A stretch of 55,876 nt of DNA. Origin: Candidatus Uhrbacteria bacterium (GTDB taxonomy: Bacteria; Patescibacteriota; Patescibacteriia; SG8-24). The DNA lies in NCBI GenBank assembly GCA_016205965.1, contig JACQSM010000069.1, forward strand, positions 1 through 55,876, given 5' to 3'. The stretch's first letter is position 1; each line of letters starts with the position of its first letter. Position numbers and translations under genes: made by a program. A model generated the notes under the pieces. The model saw only the letters and a list, made by a program, of their open reading frames with translations, made no database searches and was not told the DNA's origin. Shown one piece after another: positions 4,949 to 55,333 of the stretch.

Positions 4949-4977
4949 TTGCTACGCCGGCCGCTCGGTGCTAGACT
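4949..4977 (+). promoter_or_regulatory. Sigma70-type promoter of the copper operon (TTGCTA-17-TGcTAGACT)
   Basis: -35 TTGCTA at 4949-4954, a 17-nt spacer, TG at 4969-4970 and -10 TAGACT at 4972-4977. An inverted repeat TGCTA-N9-TAGCA (4969-4987) overlaps the -10 and could be an operator. Confidence 0.5.
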
Positions 4978-5005
4978 GTCGATAGCAATAATCAGGATAA
5001 GCTCC

Positions 5006-5386: not shown

Positions 5387-5464
5387 ACCAGGCGTCAGCG
5401 CATGGGGTACGAACGTGCTCCCATGCGTGAGGCGTCTGGTTTTTGTATTCCGTAATACGGTTCT

Positions 5465-7063: not shown

Positions 7064-7076
7064 CCTCTCATTCAGT

Positions 7077-7283
7077 ATGACAACCACACTCATCATCACC
7101 GGCATGCACTGCGCTTCATGCAAAGCGCTCATCGAAGACGTCTGCTCGGAGATCGCCGGCGTGCGCTCTTGTTCGGTCGATGTCGCCAAAGGCGAAGCGG
7201 TCGTCGAACACGACGAGTCCGTCGCTCCGTCGCTCCTCGCGAAGGAAATCGAAGGGCTCGGTAAATACGGCGTCCGCGTATGA
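7077..7283 (+). CDS. copZ: CopZ-like copper chaperone (single HMA domain)
   Basis: 68 aa with [14 protein letters not shown], the GMxCxxC motif. Confidence 0.9.
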
Positions 7284-10012: not shown

Positions 10013-10031
10013 ACGCAGTCCATTACGGTGC

Positions 10032-10061
10032 GCGACGGCCGGACCTCACGCCGGCCGTCGC
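10032..10061 (+). other. 11-bp perfect GC-rich stem-loop after copA, without a U-tract
   Basis: gcgacggccgg / ccggccgtcgc with an 8-nt loop. No T-run follows, so terminator function is uncertain. Confidence 0.35.
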
Positions 10062-10085
10062 GTCGTATCTCCGAGGTGCTGAATC

Positions 10086-10094
10086 TGCTAAACT
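10086..10094 (+). promoter_or_regulatory. Extended -10 element TGCTAAACT, 9 nt upstream of the ATG at 10104
   Basis: Lies within GAATCTGCTAAA (10081-10092), identical to 2375-2386. The spacing to the ATG is also identical. Confidence 0.45.
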
Positions 10095-10103
10095 ATAGTG
10101 CGT

Positions 10104-14974: not shown

Positions 14975-15107
14975 ATCCGGTCACGGGATGCTGGCGCCGC
15001 ATGGCCTGGCGGCGAAACGGATGCTACCATGACAACGCTTCCGCAGTTGACGCCGAAGCATGCCGGGTGATAAGCCACCCACGCCGCTATTATTCCGACG
15101 CCATATT

Positions 15108-16643
15108 ATGACCCAAGACCAGGCCCTGGCCATCATGAAATCCGGTGCCAACGTCTTCCTGACCGGAGAGCCGGGCGCCGGGAAAACGCACACCGTTAAC
15201 CGCTACGTCGACTATCTGCGGCAGCACGGCATCGAGCCGGCCCTGACCGCCTCGACCGGCATCGCCGCGACCCATATTTCGGGCATGACCGTCCATTCCT
15301 GGTCCGGCATCGGCATCGCCGCCGAACTGTCGCCCTACGATCTCGATCGCATTTCGGGCAATGAGCGCATCTACAAGCGCCTGTCCAAAGCCAAGGTGCT
15401 GATCGTCGACGAGATCTCGATGCTCGACGCCCGGACGCTCGGCATGGTCGACCAAGTTTGCCGCGCCGTCCGGCGGAACCACCTGGCCTTCGGCGGCCTG
15501 CAGACCGTTTTCGTCGGCGATTTTTTTCAGCTGCCGCCGGTCGCCCGCGAAGGGCGCGGCGCCCAATTCGCTTTTCGTTCATCGGCCTGGGCCAAGCTCC
15601 AGCCGACCGTATGCTACCTGTCCGAGCAGTACCGCCAGGACGACCCGGCGTATCTGTCGGTGCTCACGGCGATCCGTTCGAACGACGTCCGTCAGGAACA
15701 CGTCGGCGCGCTCGAGTCGCGGGCCGCCTCGCGCGCCGGCGCCGGCCAGGACGTCGTCAAACTTTTTTCGCACAACATCGACGTCGACCGGATCAACGAC
15801 AGGGAGCTGGCCAAGCTCGAGGCCAAGGAACGGTCGTTCTCGATGTCTGCCAAGGGTCCGGCGCATCTCATCGACACGCTCAAGCGGAGCTGCTTGTCGC
15901 CCGAGGCACTCCGGCTCAAACCGGGAGCGGCGGTGATGTTCACCAGGAACAACCAGCCGGCCGGCTTCGTCAACGGGACGCTCGGCACGGTCGTCGGCTT
16001 CGACCACGACACCGGGTTCCCGAAAGTCAGGACTCGGCACGGCAGCGTCATCACCGCCGAGCCGATGGACTGGAAGATCGAGGACCAGGGCCAAGCCTTG
16101 GCCGCCGTCCAGCAGGTACCGCTGCGTTTGGCTTGGGCCATGACCATCCACAAGAGCCAGGGCATGAGCCTCGACGCCGCCGTCATGGATCTCGGATCGG
16201 CCTTCGAGTACGGCCAAGGGTACGTGGCGCTCTCGCGCGTCCGGCGTTTGTCGGGACTATTCCTGCTGGGCTGCAATCGGCGGGCGCTGGAGGTGCATCC
16301 GGAAATTTTGGAGGAAGATCGCGAGCTGCGGCTGATGTCGCAAGCCGCCGAATCGGAGTTCGGGACGATGGCCGGCGACGAGCGCGACGACATCGAACGC
16401 CGCTTCATCGAGGCCTGCGGCGGCAGGATCGCGGCCGAGGCCGAAAAGAAGAAAAGTTTTTCGGTCGAAGACGTGCGCAAATCCCATCCCAAGGCCTACT
16501 CGCGCTGGTCGCCCGAAGAAGAACAGAAATTGGTCGCGATGTTCAAGGACGGCCGGGCCGTCAAAGAGATCGCCCGGCAGCTCGATCGAAAACGCGGCGG
16601 CATCACCGCCCGCCTCAAAAAGCTCGGACTCATCGAATCGTAG
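15108..16643 (+). CDS. Pif1/RecD-family ATP-dependent DNA helicase with C-terminal HTH
   Basis: Walker A GEPGAGKTH, Walker B LIVDEISM, FVGDFFQLPPV and MTIHKSQGMS. The C-terminus reads WSPEEEQKLVAMFKDGRAVKEIARQLDRKRGGITARLKKLGL. Start trimmed to MTQDQ. Confidence 0.85.
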   Translation: MTQDQALAIMKSGANVFLTGEPGAGKTHTVNRYVDYLRQHGIEPALTASTGIAATHISGMTVHSWSGIGIAAELSPYDLDRISGNERIYKRLSKAKVLIVDEISMLDARTLGMVDQVCRAVRRNHLAFGGLQTVFVGDFFQLPPVAREGRGAQFAFRSSAWAKLQPTVCYLSEQYRQDDPAYLSVLTAIRSNDVRQEHVGALESRAASRAGAGQDVVKLFSHNIDVDRINDRELAKLEAKERSFSMSAKGPAHLIDTLKRSCLSPEALRLKPGAAVMFTRNNQPAGFVNGTLGTVVGFDHDTGFPKVRTRHGSVITAEPMDWKIEDQGQALAAVQQVPLRLAWAMTIHKSQGMSLDAAVMDLGSAFEYGQGYVALSRVRRLSGLFLLGCNRRALEVHPEILEEDRELRLMSQAAESEFGTMAGDERDDIERRFIEACGGRIAAEAEKKKSFSVEDVRKSHPKAYSRWSPEEEQKLVAMFKDGRAVKEIARQLDRKRGGITARLKKLGLIES

Positions 16644-41763: not shown

Positions 41764-43122
41764 ATGAAAAGCCTGCTCAAGAAAATCCTGCCGGCGAAAG
41801 TTTTTGATTACTATCATCGCGCTTTGGCGCATCTCGCCGCGATCGTCTACCGCCGCCCCTCCGAAAAGATGATCGTCATCGGCGTCACCGGCACCAACGG
41901 CAAATCGACGACCTGCAACTTCATCGCCGCCGTGCTGGAAGAAGCCGGGTTCAAGGTCGGCCTGGCCACGACCGTCAATTTTCGCATCGCCGGCAAAGAC
42001 CGGCTCAACGATACCAAGATGACCATGCTCGGCCGTTTCGCCCTGCAGCGAATGCTCGCCGAGATGGTTCGCGCCGGCTGCCGGTACGCCATCGTCGAAA
42101 CCTCTTCCGAGGGGATCAGACAGCATCGCCATCTCGGCATCCATTATGACGCCGCCGTTTTCACCAATCTCACGCCCGAACATGTCGAATCGCACGGCGG
42201 ATTCGAGAACTATAAAAAAGCCAAGGGCGAACTCTTCGCCAAACTGGCCGACGATCCGATCAAGCGCTTGCCCGGATCCGACGGCCGCGGCCGCCGCGAC
42301 GTCAAAAAGGCGATCGTCGCCAATCTGGCCTCGCCGCACGCCGGATATTTCCTCGATTTCCGCGTCAACAAAAAATACGGCTTTTACCTGGAGCCGGCCG
42401 ACAAGCGCGGCGAGCCGCAGCTGGCCGTCTGGCCGCTCGCCATCGTCAAAGCGCTCGATGCCGACATGAGGCCGGCCGGTTCGACGTTCGCCGTCCGCGA
42501 CACCCGCTTCAGCCTGGCCATGCCCGGCGCTTTCAACGTTGAAAACGCGCTGGCCGCCATTGCCATCGGTTTGTCGCAGGGGATCGCGCTCCCGGTGATG
42601 GCCAACGCCTTGGCGAAAATTACCGGCGTGCCCGGCCGCCTTGAACGCATCGACGAAGGCCAGCCGTTTACGGTCATCGTCGATTACGCTCCCGAGCCGG
42701 AATCATTCCGAAAACTCTACGAGGTCGTCGCCCTGCTGCCGAAAAAACGCGTCATCCACGTATTGGGTTCGACCGGCGGCGGCCGCGACGTCTCCAGGCG
42801 GCCGATCCTGGGCCGACTGGCGGCGCAGAACGCCGATGTCGTCATCGTCACCAACGAAGATCCTTATGACGACGACCCGGCGCGCATCATCGCCGACGTT
42901 GCCCGCGGAGCCGCCGAACATGGTAAAATCGAGGGGCAGGACCTGTTTTTGATCCTCGACCGCGGCCAAGCCATCGATAAGGCGGTCGCTTTGGCGCAAC
43001 CGGGCGATCTCGTCCTGATCACCGGCAAAGGCTCCGAACAGGCGATGGTCGTCGCCGGCGGACGAAAAATCCCCTGGGACGACCGCGTAAAAGCGCGCGA
43101 AGCCCTCAAGAAACGGCCATGA
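41764..43122 (+). CDS. murE: Mur ligase, MurE-like (UDP-MurNAc-tripeptide synthetase)
   Basis: P-loop IGVTGTNGKSTT, then VVETSSEG.., HYDAAVFTNLTPEH and VIVDYAPEP. At the position of the DAP-specifying DNPR motif the sequence reads NEDPY. Confidence 0.85.
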   Translation: MKSLLKKILPAKVFDYYHRALAHLAAIVYRRPSEKMIVIGVTGTNGKSTTCNFIAAVLEEAGFKVGLATTVNFRIAGKDRLNDTKMTMLGRFALQRMLAEMVRAGCRYAIVETSSEGIRQHRHLGIHYDAAVFTNLTPEHVESHGGFENYKKAKGELFAKLADDPIKRLPGSDGRGRRDVKKAIVANLASPHAGYFLDFRVNKKYGFYLEPADKRGEPQLAVWPLAIVKALDADMRPAGSTFAVRDTRFSLAMPGAFNVENALAAIAIGLSQGIALPVMANALAKITGVPGRLERIDEGQPFTVIVDYAPEPESFRKLYEVVALLPKKRVIHVLGSTGGGRDVSRRPILGRLAAQNADVVIVTNEDPYDDDPARIIADVARGAAEHGKIEGQDLFLILDRGQAIDKAVALAQPGDLVLITGKGSEQAMVVAGGRKIPWDDRVKAREALKKRP

Positions 43123-43796
43123 ACATCTCTACGGCCATCCATCTCAAAGACGGCGAAAGGGTCATCCGCGTGGTGCGCCACTATTTTTTGGTTTACGTGC
43201 CCAAGTTCGCCCTGGCCTTCGCCTTGGTGGCGGCGCCGATCTTCTTTTTGGTGCCGTTGATGCGGCTGCGGTACGCCGGCCCGGCCATCGCCGCCGCTTC
43301 GATCGGCATCGGCGCGATCTATGCCCTGCGCCTCATGGTCATGTGGTATTGGAACGCCTTCGTCATCACCAACCAGCGCATCATGGATATCGACCAGCAG
43401 GGATTTTTCGAGCGGGTCGTTTCGGTGGCGCCGCTCGAGCGGATTCAGGACGTGTCGTACGCCATTCGCGGCTTCTGGGGCACGGTCTTCCGTTACGGCA
43501 TGCTCGGCATCCAGACCGCCGGCACGGCCACCAACCTTGAACTTCAGCACGTCTACGACCCCAAAGAAGCGCATCATCTGATCACCGAACTCATGGCCGG
43601 ACGCGCCGCCGAAGTCGGCGACGGACGCGCCAGCCACGGCGCCCAGCTCATCGAAGCGGCGGCCTCCATGAACGATGCCGAAGCCCGCGCCTTCCTGGTC
43701 ACGCTGCAGGACGCCGTCCGCAAGAAAGGCAGCGACCCTCGAATGAACTTAGATGCGGGAGTGCCGCCATCGGCGGCCGAGCCACGAATGGACTGA
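43119..43796 (+). CDS. Bacterial PH-domain (bPH_2/YdbT-like) membrane protein
   Basis: Two N-terminal helices, then NAFVITNQRIMDIDQQGFFERVVSVAPLERIQDV. Confidence 0.75.
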   Translation: MNISTAIHLKDGERVIRVVRHYFLVYVPKFALAFALVAAPIFFLVPLMRLRYAGPAIAAASIGIGAIYALRLMVMWYWNAFVITNQRIMDIDQQGFFERVVSVAPLERIQDVSYAIRGFWGTVFRYGMLGIQTAGTATNLELQHVYDPKEAHHLITELMAGRAAEVGDGRASHGAQLIEAAASMNDAEARAFLVTLQDAVRKKGSDPRMNLDAGVPPSAAEPRMD

Positions 43797-43797
43797 A

Positions 43798-44196
43798 ATG
43801 TCCCATGCACCGACCGGCCTCATCCGCTACCTCAAGTTGAAACGCGTTCTGATCCTGAACGCGCTGCTGTTCGCGTTCGTGGCCTGGGGCGTCTCGGGCG
43901 AATACGCCCGCAACCGCGCCCTCGCCATCGAGATCGATCGGCTCGAACGGCAATCCGGCGATCTGCGATCCAAGAACGCCGAGATCGGCGAGATCGGACA
44001 GCGTTTCACCCGGCCGGAGATGATCGAGCGCGAAGCCCGGCTCAAGCTCGGTTTGCAGCGACCCGGCGAATCGGTTATCATCGTCAAGGAACCGTCGGCT
44101 TCGGCCGCCTCGGTGGCGACCGGCGAAACCAAAGGGAAACTTCCCGGCGGCGGCTCGTCGAATATTCGCAAATGGCTGGCATATTTTTTTCATTGA
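43798..44196 (+). CDS. ftsB: Septum formation initiator (FtsB/DivIC family)
   Basis: A single TM followed by a coiled coil EIDRLERQSGDLRSKNAEIGEI and RPEMIEREARLKLGL. Start trimmed to MSHAP, 2 nt after the upstream stop. Confidence 0.75.
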   Translation: MSHAPTGLIRYLKLKRVLILNALLFAFVAWGVSGEYARNRALAIEIDRLERQSGDLRSKNAEIGEIGQRFTRPEMIEREARLKLGLQRPGESVIIVKEPSASAASVATGETKGKLPGGGSSNIRKWLAYFFH

Positions 44197-44205
44197 TCCA
44201 TCTGT

Positions 44206-45180
44206 ATGACCACACGCATGGACGGCGTTGAAGTTAAAGAGACATCGGGGGAACCCGCGCGATCGCCGGGCACGACGGTCGCCAAGAGCATGCTCATGGG
44301 CGCCGGCATCGGTATCGGCGTGATGGCTGTCATGGTAGCCGGCGTCGTCGGCGTCGGCGTATACACCAACGGCTGGCACGGCGCGGTCAGCCGCGCAGTC
44401 TTGAGCGTCGTGCCGTATCCCGCGGCCACGGTCGACGGCAAAGTCGTTCGGCTCTCGACCTACATCGAGGATCTCGAGGCGATCAGGAATTTTTTTGAGA
44501 AAGAACAGGGGCAGGCCGGCGCCTTGGGCCAGATTCCGACCGAAGACGAACTCAAGACCCAGGTCATGGAGCGGCTGGTCAGCGTCGAAGTGCTCGATGC
44601 CGAGGCCGCCAAGAGGGGAGTGTCGGTGAGCGGCGAAGATATCGACGCCGAATTCGCCAAGTTGTCCGCGGCCGGCGGCGGCGGGATCGAGCAGCAGATC
44701 AAAGACCTCTACGGTTGGACCACGGCCCAATTCAAAGACAAGGTCGTCCGACCGTATCTGCTGACCCAGAAGCTGGCCGAGGCGCTGGCCAAGGATCCGG
44801 AACTGGCCAAAGAGCGTTTCGCCAAGGCGAATGAAGTACTCGATAAACTGAAAGCCGGAGAAAAATTCGAGGATCTGGCCGCGAAATACAGCGGTGATCC
44901 TTCCCATGCCCAGAACGGCGGCGACCTCGGCTGGTTCGGCAAGGGTGTAATGGTGCCGGAGTTCGAGAACGGCGTTTTCAGCCTCAAGAAAGGCGAAACC
45001 AGCGGCCTGATCGAGACGAAGTTCGGCACGCACATCGTTTTGCTCGAGGATATCAAAAAGGCCAAGGACGGTTCCGTCGAGCAGGTCAAAGCTCGCCACA
45101 TCCTGATTTCGGCGCCGAACATCGACGAGTTCATCAAGCAGGCGGTCGAGAACGCCAAGGTCAGGAAATTCGTGAAATAA
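44206..45180 (+). CDS. Membrane-anchored parvulin-type peptidyl-prolyl isomerase (PrsA/SurA-like)
   Basis: TM helix, a SurA_N-like helical region and the PpiC domain FEDLAAKYSGDPSHAQNGGDLGWFGKGVMVPEFE..FGTHIVL. Confidence 0.85.
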   Translation: MTTRMDGVEVKETSGEPARSPGTTVAKSMLMGAGIGIGVMAVMVAGVVGVGVYTNGWHGAVSRAVLSVVPYPAATVDGKVVRLSTYIEDLEAIRNFFEKEQGQAGALGQIPTEDELKTQVMERLVSVEVLDAEAAKRGVSVSGEDIDAEFAKLSAAGGGGIEQQIKDLYGWTTAQFKDKVVRPYLLTQKLAEALAKDPELAKERFAKANEVLDKLKAGEKFEDLAAKYSGDPSHAQNGGDLGWFGKGVMVPEFENGVFSLKKGETSGLIETKFGTHIVLLEDIKKAKDGSVEQVKARHILISAPNIDEFIKQAVENAKVRKFVK

Positions 45181-45186
45181 CCGCCA

Positions 45187-45224
45187 TGCAAAACACCCCC
45201 GCCGATCGGCGAGGGTGTTTTGCA
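45187..45224. terminator. Bidirectional terminator (12-bp stem) between the PPIase gene and tRNA-Thr
   Basis: tgcaaaacaccc / gggtgttttgca flank the loop ccgccgatcggcga. Confidence 0.7.
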
Positions 45225-45300
45225 TGGAGCCACCTCCGGGGTTCGAACCCGGGACCTCTGCTTTACGAAAGCATTGCTCTGCCAGCTGAGCTAAGGTGGC
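45225..45300 (-). tRNA. tRNA-Thr (anticodon CGU), CCA encoded
   Basis: The reverse complement folds as GCCACCT-TA-GCTC-AGCTGGCA-GAGC-A-ATGCT-TTCGTAA-AGCAG-AGGTC-CCGGG-TTCGAAC-CCCGG-AGGTGGC-T-CCA. Confidence 0.9.
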
Positions 45301-45311
45301 GTTATTCGGTT

Positions 45312-45385
45312 TGGAGCGGGGTACGAGAATCGAACTCGCGTCCTCTGCTTGGGAAGCAGATGTACTGCCATTGTACTAACCCCGC
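45312..45385 (-). tRNA. tRNA-Gly (anticodon CCC), CCA encoded
   Basis: The reverse complement folds as GCGGGGT-TA-GTAC-AATGGCA-GTAC-A-TCTGC-TTCCCAA-GCAGA-GGAC-GCGAG-TTCGATT-CTCGT-ACCCCGC-T-CCA. Confidence 0.9.
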
Positions 45386-45483
45386 GCGGGGGACAAAAGC
45401 GGTTATTTTCTCGGTACTCTTTTACACTTATTTGGTGGCGCAACGGAGCTAGTATATACTGTAGTCATAGTTTTGCAACCGTC

Positions 45484-46164
45484 ATGATCCGCCTGAAAAA
45501 CGTTTCGAAAACTTATCCCCCGGACATCGTCGGTTTGCAGAATATCAATCTGCATATCCGGCCGGGCGAGTTCGTCTCGATCGTCGGCCAGAGCGGCACC
45601 GGCAAGACCACCCTGGCGAAGATGCTTATCGCCGAGGAGCATCCGAGCCACGGCCAGATCATCATCGGCGGCTGGGATATTTCCGAGATCAAACCGTCCG
45701 ACATCCCGCTCTTGCGCCGGCAGATCGGCGTCGTCTTCCAGGATTTCAAGTTGCTGCCCAAGAAAACAGTGGCCGAAAACGTCTCCTTCGCCCTCGAGGT
45801 CTGCGGCGCCAGCCCGACACAGGTGCGCCACATCGTGCCCCAGGCACTCAATATCGTCGGCCTGCTCGACAAGCGCGACCGCTATCCGCGCCAGCTCTCC
45901 GGCGGCGAACAGCAGCGCGTGGTCATCGCCCGGGCGCTGGTGCACCGGCCCAAGATCATCGTCGCCGACGAACCGACCGGCAATCTCGACACCCTCAACA
46001 CCCGCGAGATCATCACCTTGCTCGAGAAGATCAATTCGTTCGGCACAACCATCGTCCTGGTGACCCATAACCGCGAGGTCGTCAACGAATTGCGCCGCCG
46101 CGTCATCACCCTCGATCGCGGCCTCATCGTTTCGGACCAGGAAGAAGGAAAGTACCTGCTATGA
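45484..46164 (+). CDS. ftsE: Cell-division ABC ATPase FtsE
   Basis: Walker A GQSGTGKTT, signature LSGGEQQRVVIARAL and Walker [13 protein letters not shown]. It is followed by ftsX with a 4-nt overlap. Start trimmed to MIRLKN. Confidence 0.9.
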   Translation: MIRLKNVSKTYPPDIVGLQNINLHIRPGEFVSIVGQSGTGKTTLAKMLIAEEHPSHGQIIIGGWDISEIKPSDIPLLRRQIGVVFQDFKLLPKKTVAENVSFALEVCGASPTQVRHIVPQALNIVGLLDKRDRYPRQLSGGEQQRVVIARALVHRPKIIVADEPTGNLDTLNTREIITLLEKINSFGTTIVLVTHNREVVNELRRRVITLDRGLIVSDQEEGKYLL

Positions 46165-47078
46165 TCCTCGTCACCGCCGCCCGAGTCATCGGCACCGCCG
46201 CCAGGAGCCTCAAACGAAACATTTGGCTGACCTTGGCGACCGTCAGCGTGCTGATTCTGACGCTGGTTTCGGCCAACATGCTGCTGGCGCTCAACGTCCT
46301 GGGCAAGGTCGCGCTTTCGGCCGTGCGGGCCAAGGTCGACGTCAGCGTCTATTTCACGCCCGAGACCGAAGAGAATCGCGTCCAGACGGTCAAAATATTC
46401 CTGTTGAGCCTGCCCGAGGTCAAGGACGTCGAGTACGTTTCGGCCGCCCGGGCGCTCGAACGGTTTTCCGACCTGCATAAGAACGATGACGACGTCCTGG
46501 CGTCGCTCGGCGAACTCGAAGGCAATCCGCTCGGCGCGACCCTGATCGTCAAAGCCCGTTCGCTCGACGCCTATCCCAGGATCATGTCGGCCCTCGAGCA
46601 GCCGTCGTACGCGTCGGTCATCGAAGCCAAGAATTTCGACGACCGCCGCTCGGTCATCGAGCGGATCGAAACCGTCTCGCATCGCATCGAGAACGGCGGC
46701 ATCGCGGTCAGCCTGCTGTTCCTGTTCATCGCCCTCCTGATCGTCCTCAACACCATCCGCATGTCGATCTACAGCCGCCGCGACGAGATCGCCATCATGC
46801 GGCTGGTCGGCGCCTCCGACGGTTTCATCAGGGCGCCGTTCTACGTCGAAGCGCTGCTCTGGAGCCTGCTCGCGGTCGTCGTCGCCGGCGCCATCGTCAT
46901 GCCGGCGGCCCATTTCGCCCAGCCGTTCCTGCAATCGTTCTTCGGCACTTCCGGCGCCGACCTGGCCGGATTTTATCGGGTCAATTTCCTGCGCGTCTTC
47001 GGCCTCCAGCTCGGCGCCACCGCCGGCCTGGGATTGCTGGCCACCAAAATCGCCACCTCGCGTTATCTGAAAGTGTAG
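46161..47078 (+). CDS. ftsX: Cell-division permease-like protein FtsX
   Basis: TM1, an extracytoplasmic domain of about 100 aa, then three C-terminal TMs with RDEIAIMRLVGASDGFIRAPF. Confidence 0.85.
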   Translation: MILVTAARVIGTAARSLKRNIWLTLATVSVLILTLVSANMLLALNVLGKVALSAVRAKVDVSVYFTPETEENRVQTVKIFLLSLPEVKDVEYVSAARALERFSDLHKNDDDVLASLGELEGNPLGATLIVKARSLDAYPRIMSALEQPSYASVIEAKNFDDRRSVIERIETVSHRIENGGIAVSLLFLFIALLIVLNTIRMSIYSRRDEIAIMRLVGASDGFIRAPFYVEALLWSLLAVVVAGAIVMPAAHFAQPFLQSFFGTSGADLAGFYRVNFLRVFGLQLGATAGLGLLATKIATSRYLKV

Positions 47079-47082
47079 GCGT

Positions 47083-47820
47083 ATGCCCAAGGCAATCGTC
47101 CATCGCAAGCCCAAGTCCAGGAAGCTTCGGGCCGGCCGCCGCGTCGCGTATGCGCTCGTCGGATTCGCGGTCGCCGGTCTCTTGGGCGGCTATGGTCTTT
47201 GGCTGATGTTTCCCGGGGCCGGCGGCCTGGGCTCCAAGCTCGGCCCGGCCACGCCGCCGGCGCCGGACTTCGAGGCAATGATTCCGGAGGCCAGGTTCGG
47301 AAGCCGGGCGTTTGTCTACGACGATGACCCGGTTTCGCCGGCCTTCTTGGTCGGTTATGCCCTCAACGGCCGGCTCGAACTCGCCGTCGTGGCTTGGGAC
47401 TCGCGCCAGAATCGTTATCGGTTGCAGGAGACCGTCGCGCTGACGAATGGATCCGACGTGCTCGGCGGCCCGCCGGCCGTGATGCTCGAAAAAATGGGAC
47501 CGGCCGGTCCGACGCTAGTCGTCGCGAGCGGTCCGGACGCCGGCACTGGTTGGACGATGATCTTCGTGCGCGGCTCGTCCGGACTTGCGCCCGCCGCGGT
47601 CGTCGAACAGGACGGCACCGTCAGGCCGGGCGTCTTCGCCATCGACATGAAGGCGACGCTCGAGGATATCAGCGGCGACGGCGTTAAAGAGCTGCTCATC
47701 GAGCAGGTCGATGGCGGCGGCGTCCATCTTTGGGATGGCCGGCAGTTCGTCTGGGACGCCCGGCTCACCTGGGCGCTCGAGACCCGCAGCCGCCTTTTCC
47801 CGGAGCCCGAAAATCCTTGA
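47083..47820 (+). CDS. Membrane-anchored hypothetical protein
   Basis: Basic N-terminus followed by the helix VAYALVGFAVAGLLGGYGLWL. An FG-GAP/VCBS-like segment reads DISGDGVKELLIE. Confidence 0.6.
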   Translation: MPKAIVHRKPKSRKLRAGRRVAYALVGFAVAGLLGGYGLWLMFPGAGGLGSKLGPATPPAPDFEAMIPEARFGSRAFVYDDDPVSPAFLVGYALNGRLELAVVAWDSRQNRYRLQETVALTNGSDVLGGPPAVMLEKMGPAGPTLVVASGPDAGTGWTMIFVRGSSGLAPAAVVEQDGTVRPGVFAIDMKATLEDISGDGVKELLIEQVDGGGVHLWDGRQFVWDARLTWALETRSRLFPEPENP

Positions 47821-47948
47821 CGCGGCGGACGGCGCTGCGTACCTTACGGGGGTGTATTCGGGGGTCGGTCGCCTGCGGCGACACACACGCCTCTAAATAT
47901 ATTAGGGTGTTGGCCGCCGCTGGCGGCACTCCCAAGTCAAATTTTCAT

Positions 47949-48022
47949 TCGGGGGTCGTCTAATGGTAGGACAGCAGCCTTTGAAGCTGCGTGTCATGGT
48001 TCGAATCCATGCCCCCGAGCCA
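47949..48022 (+). tRNA. tRNA-Gln (anticodon UUG), CCA encoded
   Basis: Folds as TCGGGGG-TC-GTCT-AATGGTA-GGAC-A-GCAGC-CTTTGAA-GCTGC-GTGT-CATGG-TTCGAAT-CCATG-CCCCCGA-G-CCA. The U1-A72 pair and G73 discriminator fit bacterial tRNA-Gln. Confidence 0.9.
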
Positions 48023-48092
48023 TGAGCGGACATATGTGGCGACCCACATGCGTCTGGTCAAAGACCCATCACGAAAGTGGTGGGTTTTTGAT
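48017..48092 (+). repeat. Two-hairpin element, copy 2 (overlaps the last 6 nt of tRNA-Gln)
   Basis: Sequence: gagccatgagcggacatatgtggcgacccacatgcgtctggtcaaagacccatcacgaaagtggtgggtttttgat. Hairpin 1 is at 48027-48056. Hairpin 2 (GAAA loop, then TTTTT) is at 48064-48089 and probably acts as the tRNA terminator. Confidence 0.9.
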
Positions 48093-48215
48093 CCCGCGTG
48101 ATACTTTTAGCGCTATTTTTACGCATTCATGCCTGGCCGCCGCTGAGCGCAAGCGATGGGAAGAAGTTCGTCTGCATGGTATCCTCCCAAAAGGAACATA
48201 TTGATAACTAACGAT

Positions 48216-49424
48216 ATGTATAGTTACATCATTCTCCAGGTTCTTGCGGCCGGCGTCGGCATCTTTGCGGCGATACTGGTCATCAAGGGATTGCTCCTCA
48301 TCAGGAGAAAGTCGGATCGCGGCACGAGGATGACGATCGGTGTGGGGGTTTCCGCCCTGCTATTGGCGGCAATTGTCTTTGTCGTTTCAGGAATCTCCTA
48401 TCCGCTGCACTTCGCGATGCCGCCGACAATGCAAGCGATGACGCACGACAAGAAACCCCCGTCCCTGCCGATACTCGCGATGTTCGAGTTCCTTTCCAAG
48501 AGGGACGGGTTCGAGAATGTCGCCGATATCGGCCGGGACCCGAACGAGGTTCCGCTGCCGGCTGGCAGGCGGGCGCCGGAGACCGTGAAGTTTTCCGTCA
48601 AAGCAAAGGAGGTCGTCTCCGAGGTGGCCCCGGGCATCTTCTTCAACTATTGGACGTACGATGGCCAGGTGCCCGGGCCGATGTACCGTGTGCGGGTCGG
48701 TGACTTGGTGGAGCTCACGCTCACGAATGACTCCACGAGCATACATCCGCACAACATCGATCTCCATTCGGTCACGGGCCCTGGTGGCGGTGCCGCGGTC
48801 ACGCTGGTACAGCCCGGTGAGACGAAATCGTTCCGGTGGCTCGCCAAGAATCCCGGACTTTATGAGTACCACTGCGCCACGCCCAACGTCAGCACGCACA
48901 ACTCTCACGGTCAGTACGGACTGATCCTAGTCGAGCCTGAAGGCGGATTACCCGAGGTCGATAGGGAGTTCTATCTGATGCAGGGCGAACTCTACACGAT
49001 GGGCGATATCGGCAAGAAAGGCCTTATGGCGTTCGATACGCAAGGCCTCATCGACGGCACGCCGACCTACATCACCTTCAATGGCAAGATCGAGCAGGCG
49101 CCTCGCATGAAGGCGAAGGTCGGCGACCGCATCCGCATGTACGTGGGCGGTGGCGGGGTCAATCTCATTTCATCATTCCATGTCATCGGGGAGATTTTCG
49201 ATGTCGTATATCCGGAAGGCGCGATTGGCGACGGTTCGGCGGTACTCAAGAACGTGCAGACGACGGCGGTGCTCCCCGGCGGTTCGACGATCGTCGAGTT
49301 CACTGTCGACGTTCCGGGGAAGTACGTGCTCGTGGATCACGCGCTCGCGAGAATGAACAAAGGCGCTTGGGCGGTCCTCGAGGTGACGGGAGATCCGCAG
49401 CCGGATGTCTACACAGCGCTATAG
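48216..49424 (+). CDS. nirK: Copper-containing nitrite reductase (NirK-like two-domain cupredoxin) with N-terminal two-helix membrane anchor
   Basis: HPHNIDLH gives the T1 His, catalytic Asp and T2 His. YEYHCATPNVSTHNSHGQYGLILVEP gives the T2 His and T1 Cys/His. SFHVIGEIFD and LVDHALARM are also present. The track ORF starts at 48156; the ATG at 48216 begins the first TM helix. Confidence 0.85.
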   Translation: MYSYIILQVLAAGVGIFAAILVIKGLLLIRRKSDRGTRMTIGVGVSALLLAAIVFVVSGISYPLHFAMPPTMQAMTHDKKPPSLPILAMFEFLSKRDGFENVADIGRDPNEVPLPAGRRAPETVKFSVKAKEVVSEVAPGIFFNYWTYDGQVPGPMYRVRVGDLVELTLTNDSTSIHPHNIDLHSVTGPGGGAAVTLVQPGETKSFRWLAKNPGLYEYHCATPNVSTHNSHGQYGLILVEPEGGLPEVDREFYLMQGELYTMGDIGKKGLMAFDTQGLIDGTPTYITFNGKIEQAPRMKAKVGDRIRMYVGGGGVNLISSFHVIGEIFDVVYPEGAIGDGSAVLKNVQTTAVLPGGSTIVEFTVDVPGKYVLVDHALARMNKGAWAVLEVTGDPQPDVYTAL

Positions 49425-49537
49425 TTTGGCGCCGTTAGAGGTCTCGACGAGGTAGTCGTTGAACGAGGAAAAACGGAACAGTCCAAAATTAGATAATTGT
49501 GTCCTGTTGATCCGTTTTTGGTTGTGATATAGCTTGA

Positions 49538-49553
49538 GACCCACGTGCGTCTG
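49538..49553 (+). repeat. 16-nt partial copy of the hairpin-1 3' arm
   Basis: gacccacgtgcgtctg is identical to 49645-49660 of copy 3, including the G variant. Confidence 0.6.
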
Positions 49554-49619
49554 CGTGCCGGAAAAGGTCTTGAGAAAGCTCTCAACGGCCTTGCGGGTGG
49601 GGTACCAGACCCGCCTGCG

Positions 49620-49695
49620 GAGCCATGAGCGGACATATGTGGCGACCCACGTGCGTCTGGTCAAAGACCCATCACGAAAGTGGTGGGTTTTTGAT
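49620..49695 (+). repeat. Two-hairpin element, copy 3
   Basis: Identical to 48017-48092 at 75 of 76 positions (cacGtgc versus cacAtgc). Confidence 0.9.
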
Positions 49696-49765
49696 TGCTC
49701 CGGAAACCCCTCAAAAAATGTGGTATAATAACCGCCTGTCTAGTATATCCATGCAAGTTATTTAT

Positions 49766-50785
49766 ATGCTGAAAAAAATATTTTTTTTCTTGATTGCGGG
49801 AGCGGCTCTGGCGGCGATCGCGTGGTTCGGTTATCAGAAATTTACTACTACTACTACTACTACTAAATTTCCTGGGAAAATTACCATTGGTCACACGCCT
49901 TGGCCCGGCTATATCGGATTGTATATTGCAGCTGACAAGGGCTTTTTTAAAGACAACGGTCTTGACGTTGATCTTAAGGCTTATCCTGGACTTGCGGAGC
50001 TCTCTAAGGATTACGTCGCGGGAAACCTCCAGGGGAGAAGCAATTTGACTCTTGATGCCATTAACGAGGCCCATGACGGTTTAGATCAGAAGGTGGTAAT
50101 TGTAATCGATTACAGTAAAGGTTCAGACGGCATCATCGCTTCTAAAAATATCGAGAAATTTTACGATATCAAGGGTAAGAAGGTCGCTTTTGAAGCCGAG
50201 GGCCTCGAGGAGTTTTTTCTTCGTTACGCGTTGAACAATAACCAGATTAGCCTGAATGATATTATCCCCCTCAATCTTGATCCGCAAAAATCCGCTGAAG
50301 CCCTGGTAAAGGGTGAAGCCGATGTCGCGGTGACGTATGAACCGTTCATGGGGAATGCGCTGCTTGAGAGCGGAGGTCATAAAATCTTTACGTCGGCCGA
50401 TGCCCCCGGCTTGATCACCGACGTGCTGACATTCCGTTCCGATTTCGTCAAGGATTATCCGGGAACGATCGAAGCGATCGTCAATGCCTATTTTAGGGCG
50501 ATTCAATTCTGGAAAGAAAATCCCGCAGAGGCCAATAGTATTTTAGCCGAGTATCTTGACACGCCACTGGAACAAGTACCAAGCCAACTTGATGGTGTAT
50601 ACGTTCTTAATAAAGAGGATAACCGGACCGCCTTCACGTTCGCGGCCGGTGTGCAATCCCTTTACGGTAACATGCGGCAAATCGGCGAATTTGTTCATGG
50701 AATTCGTGAGAAACGTGGTGAGATACGCAGGGTTGATACCGATGCCATGATCGACCCAAGTTTTATCCGGAAGATTTCTAAGTGA
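49766..50785 (+). CDS. NMT1/SsuA-like periplasmic substrate-binding protein, with no cognate permease or ATPase nearby
   Basis: Signal/anchor MLKKIFFFLIAGAALAAIAWFG, a Thr7 linker, then ITIGHTPWPGYIGLYIAADKGFFKDNGLDVDLKAY, typical of the NitT/TauT-type binding fold. An alternative ATG is at 49751. Confidence 0.8.
   Translation: MLKKIFFFLIAGAALAAIAWFGYQKFTTTTTTTKFPGKITIGHTPWPGYIGLYIAADKGFFKDNGLDVDLKAYPGLAELSKDYVAGNLQGRSNLTLDAINEAHDGLDQKVVIVIDYSKGSDGIIASKNIEKFYDIKGKKVAFEAEGLEEFFLRYALNNNQISLNDIIPLNLDPQKSAEALVKGEADVAVTYEPFMGNALLESGGHKIFTSADAPGLITDVLTFRSDFVKDYPGTIEAIVNAYFRAIQFWKENPAEANSILAEYLDTPLEQVPSQLDGVYVLNKEDNRTAFTFAAGVQSLYGNMRQIGEFVHGIREKRGEIRRVDTDAMIDPSFIRKISK
49844..49864 (+). repeat. (ACT)7 trinucleotide microsatellite inside the binding-protein gene
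   Basis: Seven perfect ACT units encode a TTTTTTT linker. Confidence 0.9.
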
Positions 50786-50817
50786 GCCGCGCGGCTGATA
50801 TAAACAGACCCCTCTCC

Positions 50818-53019
50818 ATGAAAGTATTGACGAAAGTGACGCTCATAATCTCGACAGGCGCTTTTTTTATGCTGGCGACCGCAGGTTATTTCGTCTTTAC
50901 TGAAACCAAGAACGCGCTGCAGCAAACCATTCGAGACAGACAAAGCGAGCTCGGACATCAAACTATCGACAAGATCGATCGAACGCTATTTGGCTATTAT
51001 GTCGGCATTCAAAACATTGCCGATGAAGAGAGCATTCAGCGAACGTTGAGCGGTGCGGTGCAGGATCGCCGGGAAATCGAACGCCGCATCAAAGAACTTC
51101 CGTTCTTGACCGGCCCGTGGGATGTTCTGAAGATCATTAATTCGCAGGGAGCCATCATAGCTTCCAACTCCCGTCAAGACGCTGAGAAAAATGCGGAGAT
51201 AGAAAAAAATATCGAAAATTTGGCAGCCTTAAAGGAGGCGATCAAGGGCAACGTTTACTACTCTGATTTCCTCTTTACTAAGGACACCGGAAGGCCGACC
51301 ATGATCTTTGCGGCCCCGATTCGTGACCAGGAAACGGCGGATCAACCCATTATCGGCGTCGTGATCGGACATGTCGCCTGGCCAGTGATAAAGGAGATCA
51401 TCGAGGCATCCGATCCGGCCAGCGAATTTGACCTCTATACGCGTGGCGGCGTTCTTATCGCCACGAATCAAGAATCTGCCAAACATCTCTTTCTCAAAAA
51501 TACCGAGATTGAAAGATCCTTGTCTGCTCCGCCCCACGTCGCGAATCTAATTAAAACTGAGGCTGATGAGGGATTTGAAGCATTGGTGACGCGTGCCGAC
51601 TCGCACGGGCATCTGGCCTATAAAGGAAATCAGTGGGCTTTATTCATAGAAACGCCTACGAGCATCGCGTTTGCGCCTGCAATCAGCACCGCACGACGCA
51701 TTGTTCTGGTTCTTTTACCGATTATTTTGTTTATATTGTTCGTTATATTGCTTCTCTTGAGCTCATTAGTGGTTAGACCCATCGTCGATATCACCAAAGT
51801 TTCGAAGGTTATTGCGGTGGGCGACTTTTCAGCTAGAGTGCGGGTGCGGACGAAAGATGAGATTGGCGAACTTGCGATTTCCTTCAACGCCATGACCGAG
51901 AAAATGAGGGAATCGCTAAATATCATCAACATAGAAAGAGATAAGCTGGCGAAGCTTATTGAGAGCATGGGCGATAGCGTTATGGTAATCGACACGGAGG
52001 GAAAGATTACTCTTTGGAACTATGCTGCTGCGTTGCTGACCGGCTGGGAACAGAAGGAGGTAATAGGCAGGCCATTTAAGGATATTTTAAAACTGGTTCG
52101 CGAAGCGGATCGCGCCAGCAATAGTGACTTTATCGTTCGTGCGATCACAGAGAAGGTTAAAAAATCAATGGAAAACCACACCCTTTTGATCCGAAAAGAC
52201 GGGACGGAGATCCCTGTTGCCGATAGTGCCGCCCCGATCATAGATGCGGACGGCGATGTTTGGGGCGCTATCGTGGTATTTCGCGATGTTGCGAAAGAAA
52301 GAGAGTTAGAACGGCTCAAGACCGACTTTGTCGCCATAGCATCGCATGAAATGCGCACCCCCCTCACCCTTATTAAGGGAAACTCGGAACGCCTGTTAAA
52401 GGGTGAATCGATATTGAAAGACGCCAAGTTAACTGAAATGGTATCGAGCATATACCGGAATAGCGATCGTCTTTTCGGTATTGTAAACGATTTTCTCGAT
52501 GTCTTGACGCTTGAGGAGAAACGAATACCATTGAATTTGGAGCATTTCGATCTCGTACCTCTTGTTCATGAGTGCGTTGCGGAGTTCAGAACATTTGCAG
52601 AAGCAAAAAAGATATATTTGAAGATCGATGATCTCTCCGCCTCTCATCAAATGGTGGTAGCGGATAGGGCGCGCGTCAGGCAGGTTATGATCAATCTGTT
52701 GGGAAATGCCATGCGCCACACGGAAAAAGGCGGCGTACGTCTGACCTTTGAAAAGCAGAAAAACTTCATAGAAGTTTCCGTCAATGATACGGGCCCAGGC
52801 ATCTCGAAAGAGAATCAACTCAGGCTATTCAGAAAATTTGGTTCGATTCGGGAGACATTCATCCGTTCAAAGGAGTACGGCAGCGGTCTCGGTCTCTACA
52901 TCAGTAAACTATTGATTGAGGCCATGGGCGGAGAGATCTGGCTGAAAAAAAGTTCTCCTGGCGCCGGAAGTACGTTCAGTTTTACTTTGCGGACTTCCAC
53001 AGACAAGGAGGGCGTGTAA
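50818..53019 (+). CDS. Sensor histidine kinase (TM - Cache-like periplasmic domain - TM - HAMP - PAS - HisKA - HATPase)
   Basis: Two TM helices bracket about 270 aa. HAMP reads DEIGELAISFNAMTEKM and PAS reads VMVIDTEGKITLWNYAAALLTGW. The H-box is ASHEMRTPL, the N-box LLGNAMRHT and the G-boxes DTGPGI and GSGLGL. The track ORF starts at GTG 50782. Confidence 0.9.
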   Translation: MKVLTKVTLIISTGAFFMLATAGYFVFTETKNALQQTIRDRQSELGHQTIDKIDRTLFGYYVGIQNIADEESIQRTLSGAVQDRREIERRIKELPFLTGPWDVLKIINSQGAIIASNSRQDAEKNAEIEKNIENLAALKEAIKGNVYYSDFLFTKDTGRPTMIFAAPIRDQETADQPIIGVVIGHVAWPVIKEIIEASDPASEFDLYTRGGVLIATNQESAKHLFLKNTEIERSLSAPPHVANLIKTEADEGFEALVTRADSHGHLAYKGNQWALFIETPTSIAFAPAISTARRIVLVLLPIILFILFVILLLLSSLVVRPIVDITKVSKVIAVGDFSARVRVRTKDEIGELAISFNAMTEKMRESLNIINIERDKLAKLIESMGDSVMVIDTEGKITLWNYAAALLTGWEQKEVIGRPFKDILKLVREADRASNSDFIVRAITEKVKKSMENHTLLIRKDGTEIPVADSAAPIIDADGDVWGAIVVFRDVAKERELERLKTDFVAIASHEMRTPLTLIKGNSERLLKGESILKDAKLTEMVSSIYRNSDRLFGIVNDFLDVLTLEEKRIPLNLEHFDLVPLVHECVAEFRTFAEAKKIYLKIDDLSASHQMVVADRARVRQVMINLLGNAMRHTEKGGVRLTFEKQKNFIEVSVNDTGPGISKENQLRLFRKFGSIRETFIRSKEYGSGLGLYISKLLIEAMGGEIWLKKSSPGAGSTFSFTLRTSTDKEGV

Positions 53020-53043
53020 TAATCATAGGTACGCAATCACATT

Positions 53044-53427
53044 ATGACCATGAAAAAACGCATTTTGTTAGTTGACGACGAGGATGAAATTCTTTCACTC
53101 TATGGCGAGGTGCTCGCCGAAGAGGGCTTTGAGGTATTGATCGCACATGATGGAGCGGAGGGGGTCAAAGTCGCCAAGCAGGAGAAACCCGACCTCGTCC
53201 TAATGGATCTTAAAATGCCGGTCATGGACGGTATGGACGCATTCATGCAGATTCATGATGACCCTGCCACGCGAGCCATAAAAGTTGTTTTCCTGACCGC
53301 TTTCGGTGATCCTGAAGTGGTGGGGGCTGACATCAAGATATCCGAAGAGATCGGTGCCGCGGGTTATATCAGAAAGGGAATTACACTTGATGAATTAGTA
53401 AAAAAGGTCAGGGAGTATATACGGTAG
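53044..53427 (+). CDS. Stand-alone response-regulator receiver domain (CheY-like)
   Basis: ILLVDDEDE, phospho-acceptor LVLMDLKMPVMDG, FLTAFGD and YIRKG. No output domain (127 aa). Confidence 0.9.
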   Translation: MTMKKRILLVDDEDEILSLYGEVLAEEGFEVLIAHDGAEGVKVAKQEKPDLVLMDLKMPVMDGMDAFMQIHDDPATRAIKVVFLTAFGDPEVVGADIKISEEIGAAGYIRKGITLDELVKKVREYIR

Positions 53428-53465
53428 ATTTCTAGGTGTTCCGAGAGTGAGTTGGTGAGCCACGT

Positions 53466-53493
53466 AAAAGCCGCGCCGTTCGGAGCGGTTTTT
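53466..53493 (+). terminator. Terminator-like hairpin after the receiver gene, preceded by GAGCCACG
   Basis: Stem ccgc-g-cc / gg-a-gcgg with loop gttc, flanked by aaaag on the left and ttttt on the right. gagcca lies at 53457-53462. Confidence 0.45.
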
Positions 53494-54823: not shown

Positions 54824-55333
54824 TCATTTGACCTCGACGATCGTATAAACGATGTCGCGGCCGTTGGCGGCGACGGTGACCGTTTCGCCGGCGCGGCGGT
54901 CGATGAGGGCTTTGCCGAGCGGGGACAGGTGCGAGATCCTGCCGGCCGCCGGGTTGGTTTCTTGCGAGCCGAGTATTTGATAGGTCCGCCGGTTGCCGTT
55001 GATCATCAGCACCACGGTCGAGCCGATGCGGATTTTGCCGGAAGGATCGGCGCCGGTTTCGATGATGATGGCGTTCTTGAGCCGATCCTTGATCGACAAG
55101 ACGCGGCCGTCGATGCGGCCGAGCCGGGCTTTGGCTTCGGTATAGGCGGCGTTCTCGGAAAGATCGCCCATTTCGCGCGCCTTGGTCAGGTCTTCGACCG
55201 CCTTTGGGCGCTGGACGCGCTCCAGGTCTTCGAGGTCGGCCTTAAGACGGCGGACTTTTTCGGCCGTCATATAATGATCCTCTTGGCGGCCGGCCAGACG
55301 ATCCATCTCTGATTTGCGTTTGGGTACCTGCAT
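54824..55333 (-). CDS. greA: Transcription elongation factor GreA
   Basis: Coiled-coil part LKADLEDLERVQRPKAVEDLTKAREMGDLSENAAYTEAKARL, then the C-terminal domain IRIGSTVVL...ISHLSPLGKALIDRRAGE. The start may instead be MTAEKV at 55270. The upstream part of track ORF 54824..55792 is antisense to the ABC-F gene. Confidence 0.88.
   Translation of the reverse strand: MQVPKRKSEMDRLAGRQEDHYMTAEKVRRLKADLEDLERVQRPKAVEDLTKAREMGDLSENAAYTEAKARLGRIDGRVLSIKDRLKNAIIIETGADPSGKIRIGSTVVLMINGNRRTYQILGSQETNPAAGRISHLSPLGKALIDRRAGETVTVAANGRDIVYTIVEVK

Follow-up and report, generated by a model that had tools for sequence, protein, structure and literature searches.

A hairpin-terminator module at tRNA ends flanks nirK in a Patescibacteria contig and suggests a cassette array mobilised in trans

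Several described systems build up variable regions at the 3' ends of genes for small stable RNAs. Serial integration at tRNA 3' ends, with partial tRNA copies left between the elements, is established for the tycheposons of Prochlorococcus, which carry a tyrosine or large serine recombinase together with a replication module. The cis-mobilisable elements (CIMEs) of Firmicutes are att-flanked segments without recombination genes, which lie in tandem at one tRNA/att site and are thought to be moved by a cognate integrase, and the ssrA islands of Dehalococcoides (vcrABC, reductive dehalogenases) are 10-30 kb long, encode a serine integrase and are marked by an ssrA repeat of about 20 bp. Patescibacteria, which are uncultivated and have genomes of < 1 Mb, have few recognised mobile elements. 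Here we consider a locus in contig JACQSM010000069.1 of a Candidatus Uhrbacteria bacterium (one complete contig of 55,876 bp, all of it analysed and referred to here as the window), where nirK, the gene for a copper nitrite reductase, lies downstream of a tRNA-Gln(UUG) gene between two copies of a small junction module. Our preferred reading, to which we give a little better than an even chance, is that site-specific integration into the GAGCCA end of a tRNA gene, with mobilisation in trans, produced the array of cassettes in the window, and that the nirK unit is still able to loop out. The array works like tycheposons, CIMEs, ssrA islands and integron arrays, yet it is a member of none of these groups, their defining enzymes not having been found.

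It had been predicted from the nucleotide sequence that nirK is bracketed by near-identical direct repeats of 76 nt, the left one starting inside the 3' end of tRNA-Gln. These repeats are real: a repeat search places them at 48017-48092 and 49620-49695, 1603 nt apart and identical at 75 of 76 positions (99%), the sole mismatch being A48048 versus G49651, and neither repeat half found a match in shuffled sequence (0/100 shuffles). The tRNA-Gln(UUG) gene that anchors the array (47949-48022, + strand) is intact according to ARAGORN and Rfam (63.8 bits), having U1-A72, G73 and the 3' end GAGCCA; since both programs put the tRNA at these coordinates, the left repeat opens with tRNA positions 71-76. 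As had also been predicted, nirK (48216-49424, + strand; Pfam Cu-oxidase_3 and Cu-oxidase_2), the cargo of what we call cassette 1, is the sole gene between the repeats (list of open reading frames (ORFs), Pfam), and a 16-nt partial extra copy is present at 49538-49553. NirK has two hydrophobic segments at its N-terminus (an alternative start lies at 48156), its homologues at 60-87% identity are annotated as NO-forming nitrite reductases of Patescibacteria, and the nearest relatives of NirK and of one syntenic flanking protein are found in Patescibacteria/Parcubacteria metagenome-assembled genomes.

The junction module is about 78 nt long and consists of the tRNA GAGCCA, a TGA, a conserved imperfect hairpin of about 14 bp (hairpin 1) and an intrinsic terminator (hairpin 2). 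The left copy (48017-48096, + strand; 85.9 bits with a covariance model) has GAGCCA, then hairpin 1, closed by TGA/TCA, at 48023-48060, and the terminator at 48064-48089 (+ strand; repeat search, RNAfold); the right copy, with G at 49651, occupies 49620-49699 (+ strand; 87.5 bits). Both of the hairpins claimed for each copy were recovered by RNAfold (-40.9 kcal/mol, z = -4.6). The terminator stem reaches 17 bp, as GGTCAAAG pairs with TTTTTGAT (the U-tract), an extension that is probably why a simple terminator scan overlooked it. A third copy (2258-2337, + strand; 95.1 bits) has the same GAGCCATGA and hairpin 1 as the nirK copies, with differences that preserve pairing, and a different terminator, GCCAGCCAAGAAATTGGCTGGC, of a type also seen after tRNA-Asn in the related locus L015, and in L014.

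When the 16 full copies introduced below were fitted to the covariance model (a MAFFT alignment agreed), 96.8% of cells were paired and 11 pairs had changed on both sides, while slid controls were 32-46% paired and 0/500 shuffles reached any observed measure. Hairpin 2, with a stem of 9-10 bp followed by T5, shows changes on both sides in 7/10 pairs, and 96% of its cells pair; to judge from these sequences, it behaves as a rho-independent terminator that drifts freely with compensation. The sequences of hairpin 1 and GAGCCATGA are conserved; in hairpin 1, G.U predominates at two neighbouring pairs, and pairing survives G.U, A-U and G-C changes. The - strand of the module folds 9 kcal/mol worse than the + strand, so that the structure belongs to the tRNA-sense strand, either as RNA or as top-strand single-stranded DNA (ssDNA). 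Rfam returned only three tRNAs at the gathering score in the window, and nothing for the relatives' modules at E <= 0.1. Indels between copies put a small ORF from the ATG of GCCATGA out of frame, so that it was rejected, and minus-strand ORFs over the repeat were set aside as well, the similarity of their peptides merely mirroring the DNA repeat.

The strand-specific fold in tRNA sense, the tolerance of hairpin 1 for G.U at two adjacent pairs and the freely covarying, terminator-like hairpin 2 would suit an element that acts at the RNA level, as a tRNA 3'-trailer hairpin plus terminator concerned with processing, stability or insulation. DNA, acquired for example by natural transformation, would then enter by homologous recombination between copies, with no dedicated recombinase (and Pfam scans of the window found none); Campbell-type integration or unequal crossover would put a module on both sides of the incoming DNA, and homologous integration or gene conversion would be expected to give 75/76 identity over the full 76 nt. 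We regard this explanation as unlikely, though it deserves some weight: diverged homology of 76 nt is a poor RecA substrate, and several properties of the junctions, brought out below, do not follow from it.

The module recurs in relatives. Homologues of nirK at 76-87% identity were traced to their contigs, and a metagenome pattern scan gave 10 matches, comprising six genuine loci and four chance matches (L010/L017, L013/L016) that were discarded. By means of a covariance model built from 12 copies, 16 full copies were found in 10 Patescibacteria loci, every one in tRNA orientation and each either directly behind tRNA-Asn(GUU) or tRNA-Gln(UUG), or behind a 6-24-nt tRNA 3' fragment between blocks of cargo. 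A GTDB-wide scan with the 21-mer TGGCGACCCACRTGCGTCTGG gave a single match, in GC-rich coding DNA of a Gemmatimonadota contig, which we attribute to chance.

The module lies upstream of nirK in four genomes. It did not originate with the insertion of nirK but is a lineage-wide junction element. Locus L002 has, in order, tRNA-Asn, module, nirK, a second module, and genes for a multicopper oxidase and a Cu-ATPase. In L005 and L006 the tRNA-Asn is intact and has its own terminator; about 110 nt separate it from a 19-nt copy of the tRNA-Asn 3' end, after which come the module and nirK. The segment of about 110 nt with its own terminator, between tRNA-Asn and the 19-nt duplicate (L005 7766-7878), resembles an empty or decayed mini-cassette (compare L023 7544-7731). 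On a contig without a tRNA, L004 has a module (with GAGTCA) upstream of nirK and, after nirK, the box described below. The nirK relatives L003, L024 and L026 are without a module.

Elsewhere the same module borders quite different genes. In L011 the order is tRNA-Asn, module, 1 kb of AT-rich unknown cargo, module; in L015, tRNA-Asn, module, two ORFs, module, an ORF of 198 aa, and GGAGCCA with a terminator but no hairpin 1; and in L019 plus L018, tRNA-Asn, module, genes for PAS and Fic proteins on the opposite strand, module. An intron-split tRNA-Asn and a module precede genes for HamA and a DEAD/ResIII helicase (Hachimoji; 6066-9834, - strand) in L012, where housekeeping genes resembling sufS and sufC lie upstream. 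The 842-kb contig L023 has tRNA-Asn, module and an island at 2110-7427 encoding ThsB-TIR, SLATT (DUF4231), an N6-N4 methylase and a ResIII helicase; this defence island, of 5.6 kb, ends in GAGCCA-TGA plus terminator, and a decayed 17-nt tRNA-Asn 3' fragment (7726) is found about 190 nt beyond its end, two GAGCCA junctions bounding the island on this side. A gene for a small GIY-YIG protein is immediately upstream of the L023 tRNA-Asn. The cargos seen include nirK, Hachimoji, the ThsB/SLATT/methylase island, Fic and unknowns, and those of L018 and L015 are on the opposite strand.

The tRNA-Asn(GUU) genes of L012 (10106-10394, - strand) and L019 (147-374, - strand) contain a group I intron in the anticodon loop, and since this splits the gene ARAGORN calls no tRNA at either site. 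The introns score 41 and 35 bits with Rfam RF00028 (gathering score 50), the exons are intact in both loci (the 5' exon of L019 lies near 466-432), and the two T-stems differ by a compensatory change. We had entertained the possibility that a truncated tRNA-Asn ahead of these modules represented attR, and rejected it.

Could the module be just a lineage-specific terminator, akin to repetitive extragenic palindromic (REP) elements, which came to lie next to tRNAs and nirK by chance and has nothing to do with mobility? It does contain a good intrinsic terminator, and the lineage is so sparsely sampled that the copy number per genome is uncertain. We nevertheless disfavour this idea as very improbable. 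All three copies in the 56-kb window lie at a tRNA or at an edge of foreign DNA, the covariance model, run over about 200 kb of related loci, located none behind ordinary genes, GAGCCA and tRNA fragments have been kept, and synteny breaks exactly at a tRNA end (see below). The att-like interpretation offered in the original prediction survives this comparison, as 16/16 copies are in tRNA-anchored arrays beside variable genes.

The junctions themselves are informative. Copies distant from a tRNA all begin with GAGCCA (once GAGTCA); at L005, L018_2 and L015_2 this is preceded by a true tRNA 3' fragment of 19-24 nt, other copies having a T-arm-like mimic, and the fragments at L018_2 and L015_2 differ from the resident tRNA-Asn. 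The other kind of sequence found ahead of GAGCCA is a conserved right end, about 85 nt in length, made up of TTGA, a box (GACCCAyGTGCGTC), about 65 nt, GGGyACCAGACCC and then ..GCGGAGCCA, the box (as ACCCAyGTGCGTC) lying about 80 nt upstream of GAGCCA. Because the box is the loop plus 3' arm sequence of hairpin 1, it flanks GAGCCA at about -80 and +25. The right end of the window's nirK unit (49532-49619, + strand) has TTGA, the box GACCCACGTGCGTCTG at 49537-49553, a spacer, the T-arm-like GGGGTACCAGACCC and GCCTGCG, and it is matched at L002 9270-9356 (nirK), at L015 3390-3475 (the unrelated 198-aa cargo) and at about 7460-7537 of L023 (the defence island). Thus one right end is common to nirK (window, L002, L004), to the L015 cargo and to the L023 island; at the third module copy of the window it is degenerate. 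The stop codon of the cargo is the TGA inside TTGAGACCCA in L002 and L015, so that in L002 the nirK stop falls within the right end. The window has, between the nirK stop and the right end, an AT-rich insert of about 110 nt (around 49470-49523) that is lacking in L002; it contains a terminator-like hairpin followed by TTTTT, and nirK may therefore terminate ahead of the junction module here. A consensus fold of three right ends showed weak structure, no covariation and no hairpin resembling hairpin 1.

It is these features that the RNA-level explanation leaves aside: it does not account for GAGCCA and non-resident tRNA 3' fragments at copies far from a tRNA (L018_2, L015_2), nor for unrelated cargos having in common an 85-nt right end whose box keeps a constant distance; junctions that lack hairpin 1 still end exactly at GAGCCA; and the orientation of the module follows the tRNA rather than the cargo genes. 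Another way to read them would be that cassettes move as ssDNA through the action in trans of an enzyme that recognises hairpins, either an HUH enzyme of the IS200/IS605 insertion sequence (IS) type or the REP-associated tyrosine transposase (RAYT) type, or an integron-like tyrosine recombinase, with hairpin 1 as its site and GAGCCA as the target or cleavage sequence. An imperfect hairpin that is strand-specific, conserved in sequence and tolerant of G.T, insertion always directly 3' of a single short motif, a directly oriented copy at either end, small enzyme-less cassettes (as in integrons, REP elements or bacterial interspersed mosaic elements (BIMEs)) and a closed cycle compatible with a circular intermediate (L020, below) would all agree with this. 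We think it quite unlikely, however, as the search of the window for Y1_Tnp, TnpB or IntI domains was negative, all that the right end shares with hairpin 1 is its 3' half (the box), with no comparable hairpin, the R-boxes of attC sites (RYYYAAC / GTTRRRY) are on neither strand of the module, and hairpin 1 is missing at some junctions. By eye, the 1527-nt insert has no terminal inverted repeat at its ends (48093, 49619), which counts against an insert of the casposon or IS type.

Comparison with a locus that retains the tRNA-Gln neighbourhood shows where variable DNA begins. L022 is collinear with the window from 42687 to 48022, through genes for murein ligase and SurA, tRNA-Thr, tRNA-Gly, ftsE, ftsX, a 245-aa gene and tRNA-Gln; collinearity is lost at the final base of tRNA-Gln, exactly at 48022, and regained at greA (tblastx), which in the window (54824-55300, - strand; Pfam GreA_GreB) forms the far edge of the variable interval. 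The genes upstream of the array (ftsE, ftsX and the 245-aa unknown) are thus conserved in synteny. L022 has an unrelated tRNA-Gln trailer, neither module nor nirK, and other small ORFs in the interval. As regards the question, raised with the original prediction, of whether all relatives carry nirK at this place, L022 gives an example of tRNA-Gln without nirK, and the att-like reading survives, with the qualification that this distant locus is without the module also.

There are at least five different neighbourhoods of nirK among seven close homologues, and in L002 a nirK unit with the matching right end sits behind tRNA-Asn. Moreover, an independently assembled Logan contig from sample SRR12113385 (L020) corresponds to window 48063-49695 and contains a single repeat copy, of the A variant; as its ends overlap by 30 nt (k-1), it forms a closed cycle of 1603 nt made of one repeat and nirK. 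The sample holds the strain of the window, another of its contigs (L021) being 100% identical. The assembly is fragmented and L021 stops inside the tRNA, so that L020 would fit a tandem array or an artefact of the assembly graph as well as a circle. Because the left and right copies are nearly identical, recombination between them can at present excise or amplify the 1603-nt nirK unit. Of the three readings originally offered, that of a cassette mobilised in trans fits best with a nirK unit behind tRNA-Asn, other cargos at the same junctions and the 1603-nt cycle.

Several observations weigh against this preferred reading. As had been claimed for the window, Pfam searches revealed no integrase, transposase, resolvase or HUH domain in its approximately 40 ORFs (specifically, no Phage_integrase, Resolvase, rve, Y1_Tnp, OrfB, TnpB or IntI), nor in the ORFs of the relatives' cassettes (which were scanned or had precomputed Pfam annotation), and recombinase domains were likewise absent within the fetched flanks of relatives. 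The junction is absent from phage, plasmid and viral contig collections: a 171-nt junction had no blastn match among phages and plasmids, and scans of viral contigs with two patterns gave three matches in coding DNA, which were due to chance, and then none. With no recombinase identified, it is by inference that we speak of site-specific integration. The left and right copies are alike at 75/76 positions through the terminator, unlike what a GAGCCA crossover of independent cassettes would give, and elsewhere terminators differ (79% identity in L002). L022 is weak as an 'empty site', its distance being such that a flanking gene has 57% protein identity; in L023 and L026, nirK lies close to greA with no module beside it; the L020 cycle could be a de Bruijn graph artefact of the fragmented assembly; and six loci were retrieved by a pattern that required GAGCCATGA, so that its invariance in them is partly by construction. 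The suggestion of attL/attR formed by site-specific integration holds in its att-like part, whereas the identity of the terminators brings in homologous recombination or gene conversion. Possible origins of this identity are gene conversion, homologous (Campbell-type) integration through the 76 nt, duplication of the module on insertion, or a composite origin.

What the data show is how the loci are built, that this plan recurs with varied cargos, that synteny breaks where the tRNA ends and that one contig closes into a cycle. If cassettes did arrive by site-specific recombination, the following scheme would accommodate these data; in it we infer an enzyme, where the crossover falls and which way cassettes move. 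Circular cassettes would integrate at or next to GAGCCA(TGA) by means of a recombinase encoded elsewhere and so acting in trans, and older cassettes would be displaced from the tRNA by newer arrivals. Each cassette would begin with TGA, hairpin and terminator, continue with its own promoter and cargo, and finish with the right end (box, about 65 nt, tRNA-3'-like stretch, GAGCCA), the terminator shielding it from tRNA read-through. Protein would probably recognise hairpin 1 and the box, which occurs to either side of the junction. Such cassettes, of 0.2-5.7 kb and free of recombinase genes, are stacked downstream of the tRNA in this clade of groundwater Patescibacteria, the order in the window most likely being tRNA-Gln, the nirK cassette, a cassette for a solute-binding protein (SBP), kinase and regulator, GAGCCA with the original terminator, and core genes to greA. 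At the distal boundary the tRNA 3' segment is repeated directly as the 6-nt GAGCCA, at 49620 and possibly again at 53457; the tRNA fragments of relatives measure 17-24 nt (L005, L018_2, L015_2, L023 7726).

A bolder proposal, which we put forward tentatively and consider improbable as it stands, is that the module and right end together form the recombination site of an undescribed integron-like platform for gene capture in the candidate phyla radiation (CPR)/Patescibacteria, through which a dedicated trans-acting enzyme inserts enzyme-less cassettes, insulated by their terminator and driven by their own promoter, at GAGCCA in a tRNA-anchored array. Such an enzyme may read the hairpin in its folded, strand-specific form; alternatively, it may make staggered cuts in the manner of a Cas1-type integrase and so duplicate the entire module. 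If this were so, the platform would be one of the chief ways in which adaptive genes are exchanged among organisms regarded as poor in mobile elements, with nirK, Hachimoji, Thoeris-like genes, a methylase/helicase island resembling restriction-modification systems, Fic and sensor modules as its cargos so far.

How does the array compare with the systems outlined at the outset? It resembles tRNA genomic islands in its insertion at a tRNA 3' end, the intact tRNA, a distal tRNA repeat and atypical GC content, but no integrase was found. Tycheposons and P4-type tRNA islands are similar in that newer arrivals push older ones outward, that cargo is adaptive (nitrogen, defence) and that hosts are streamlined and have few classical mobile elements; they differ in size (10-20 kb, against 0.2-5.7 kb for units of the window type). 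None of the latter has the recombinase and replication module of tycheposons, and whereas the duplicated part of the tRNA is here 6-24 nt, the repeat lies mostly beyond the tRNA, as a hairpin-terminator module, and a right end with a box is conserved across cargos. The likeness to CIMEs is that the nirK segment, read from sequence, lies between putative att-like repeats without a recombinase gene, the closed cycle of L020 being no more than suggestive of functional sites. Unlike for CIMEs, no cognate integrative and conjugative element (ICE) or integrase-bearing element turned up, whether among the fetched loci or in collections of viruses, phages and plasmids, and the units look like single-function cassettes with their own promoter and insulator rather than deletion derivatives of an ICE.

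Respiratory genes are likewise carried by the Dehalococcoides islands, which are integrated one after another at the 3' end of a gene for a small stable RNA, have short direct repeats and occur in a groundwater host of uncultivated type, but they are larger (10-30 kb), carry an integrase and draw their repeat from ssrA itself. Integron cassettes and clusters of attC sites lacking an integrase (CALINs) share with the array small, enzyme-less and mostly single-function cassettes, imperfect palindromic sites in one orientation, a strand-specific fold and possibly a circular intermediate. Unlike integrons, however, the module has no RYYYAAC/GTTRRRY on either strand, there is no IntI and no attI, a tRNA heads the array, and cassettes have a terminator, apparently a promoter of their own, and a cargo that can be on either strand and comprise several genes. 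IS200/IS605 and REP/BIME elements follow a comparable plan, in which a subterminal imperfect hairpin is recognised on a single strand and the element goes in 3' of a fixed short sequence, with no classical target duplication; the differences are that no TnpA/RAYT was found in the window, that the right end has no matching hairpin, and that copy number is low and linked to tRNAs.

The patchy occurrence of nirK between sister Parcubacteria has been ascribed to likely horizontal gene transfer (PMC11188291), and tRNA-anchored cassettes offer a mechanism for this patchiness in groundwater Parcubacteria. Defence genes, too, are unevenly distributed even among sister genomes. More generally, the module array suggests how tiny groundwater Patescibacteria genomes swap respiratory and defence genes. 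A junction module at tRNA-Asn/Gln with nirK, Hachimoji, Thoeris-like and Fic cargos is a searchable signature for the flexible genome of the clade; it could lead to the recombinase through phyletic co-occurrence, and to gain, loss and amplification of respiratory genes in read data. The building of islands in the tycheposon manner would thereby be extended to enzyme-less mini-cassettes in a second streamlined lineage.

Immediately beyond the right repeat is a putative second cassette (49696-53456, + strand; Pfam, GC content), with genes, identified by Pfam, for an NMT1/NrtA-like binding protein (49751-50785), a Cache-HAMP-PAS histidine kinase (50782-53019) and a response regulator (53044-53427), a trio that is native in other CPR genomes. 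Its GC content (47.4%) is close to that of an island at the start of the contig (island A, 47.9%), the nirK unit being intermediate (57.6%) and the backbone at 62.9%; both low-GC blocks abut module copies. The idea of nirK as the sole bracketed unit must be modified: the repeats are real, but they belong to an array in which the low-GC SBP/kinase/regulator cassette comes next, and a Fic island stands apart from them at the opposite contig end. A tentative distal junction, read from the sequence at 53457-53493 (+ strand), has GAGCCA followed directly by a terminator hairpin, without hairpin 1, and may be the original tRNA-Gln trailer. It falls at a jump in GC from 47% to 61% and is analogous to the hairpin-less junctions at L015 3476 and L023 7538; a further reservation about the preferred reading is that this 6-mer match, supported by the GC shift, could on its own be a matter of chance. 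The closest locus with an SBP homologue (L025) is without a module and uninformative on the boundaries of cassette 2, and a look-up of the window's SBP in the Logan sample gave no record. After its signal/anchor segment the NMT1-like protein has a run of seven threonines, encoded by a perfect (ACT)7 microsatellite (49844-49864), possibly a slippage-prone tract.

Inspection by eye revealed extended -10-like motifs (TGnTAnAAT) 25-60 nt past module terminators: TGTGGTATAAT at 49719-49729, at the start of cassette 2, and TGTGGTACAAT and TGCTAAAAT, near L002 9486-9500 and near 2370-2385 of the window. These suggest that each cassette may bring its own promoter; a sigma-70 scan, which requires a -35 box, found no promoter.

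Island A (1-2257, + strand; GC, Pfam), which runs off the contig start, contains a fic gene (119-1087) and two unknown ORFs, and has a degenerate box about 77 nt upstream of GGAGCCA. One ORF of this island (1387-2130, 247 aa) has a CxC...CxH pattern, GNCECYLGQQDMLCKH, like that of a SWIM zinc finger, and no Pfam match. A gene for a PIF1-family helicase (15060-16643) belongs to the backbone and is not related to the nirK array. Downstream of the third module copy is a copper-handling cluster (5465-12230) encoding a DsbD_2/HMA/cupredoxin fusion and two P1B-type ATPases, one with HMBD. The same cluster is downstream of nirK in L002 and L005, and one of the Cu-ATPases is 80% identical to that downstream of nirK in L002. 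With this cluster adjoining it, the locus of the third copy resembles the tRNA-Asn/nirK locus of relatives, nirK in the window being at tRNA-Gln instead, and the shared cluster suggests that copper supply and the copper enzyme NirK are functionally linked.

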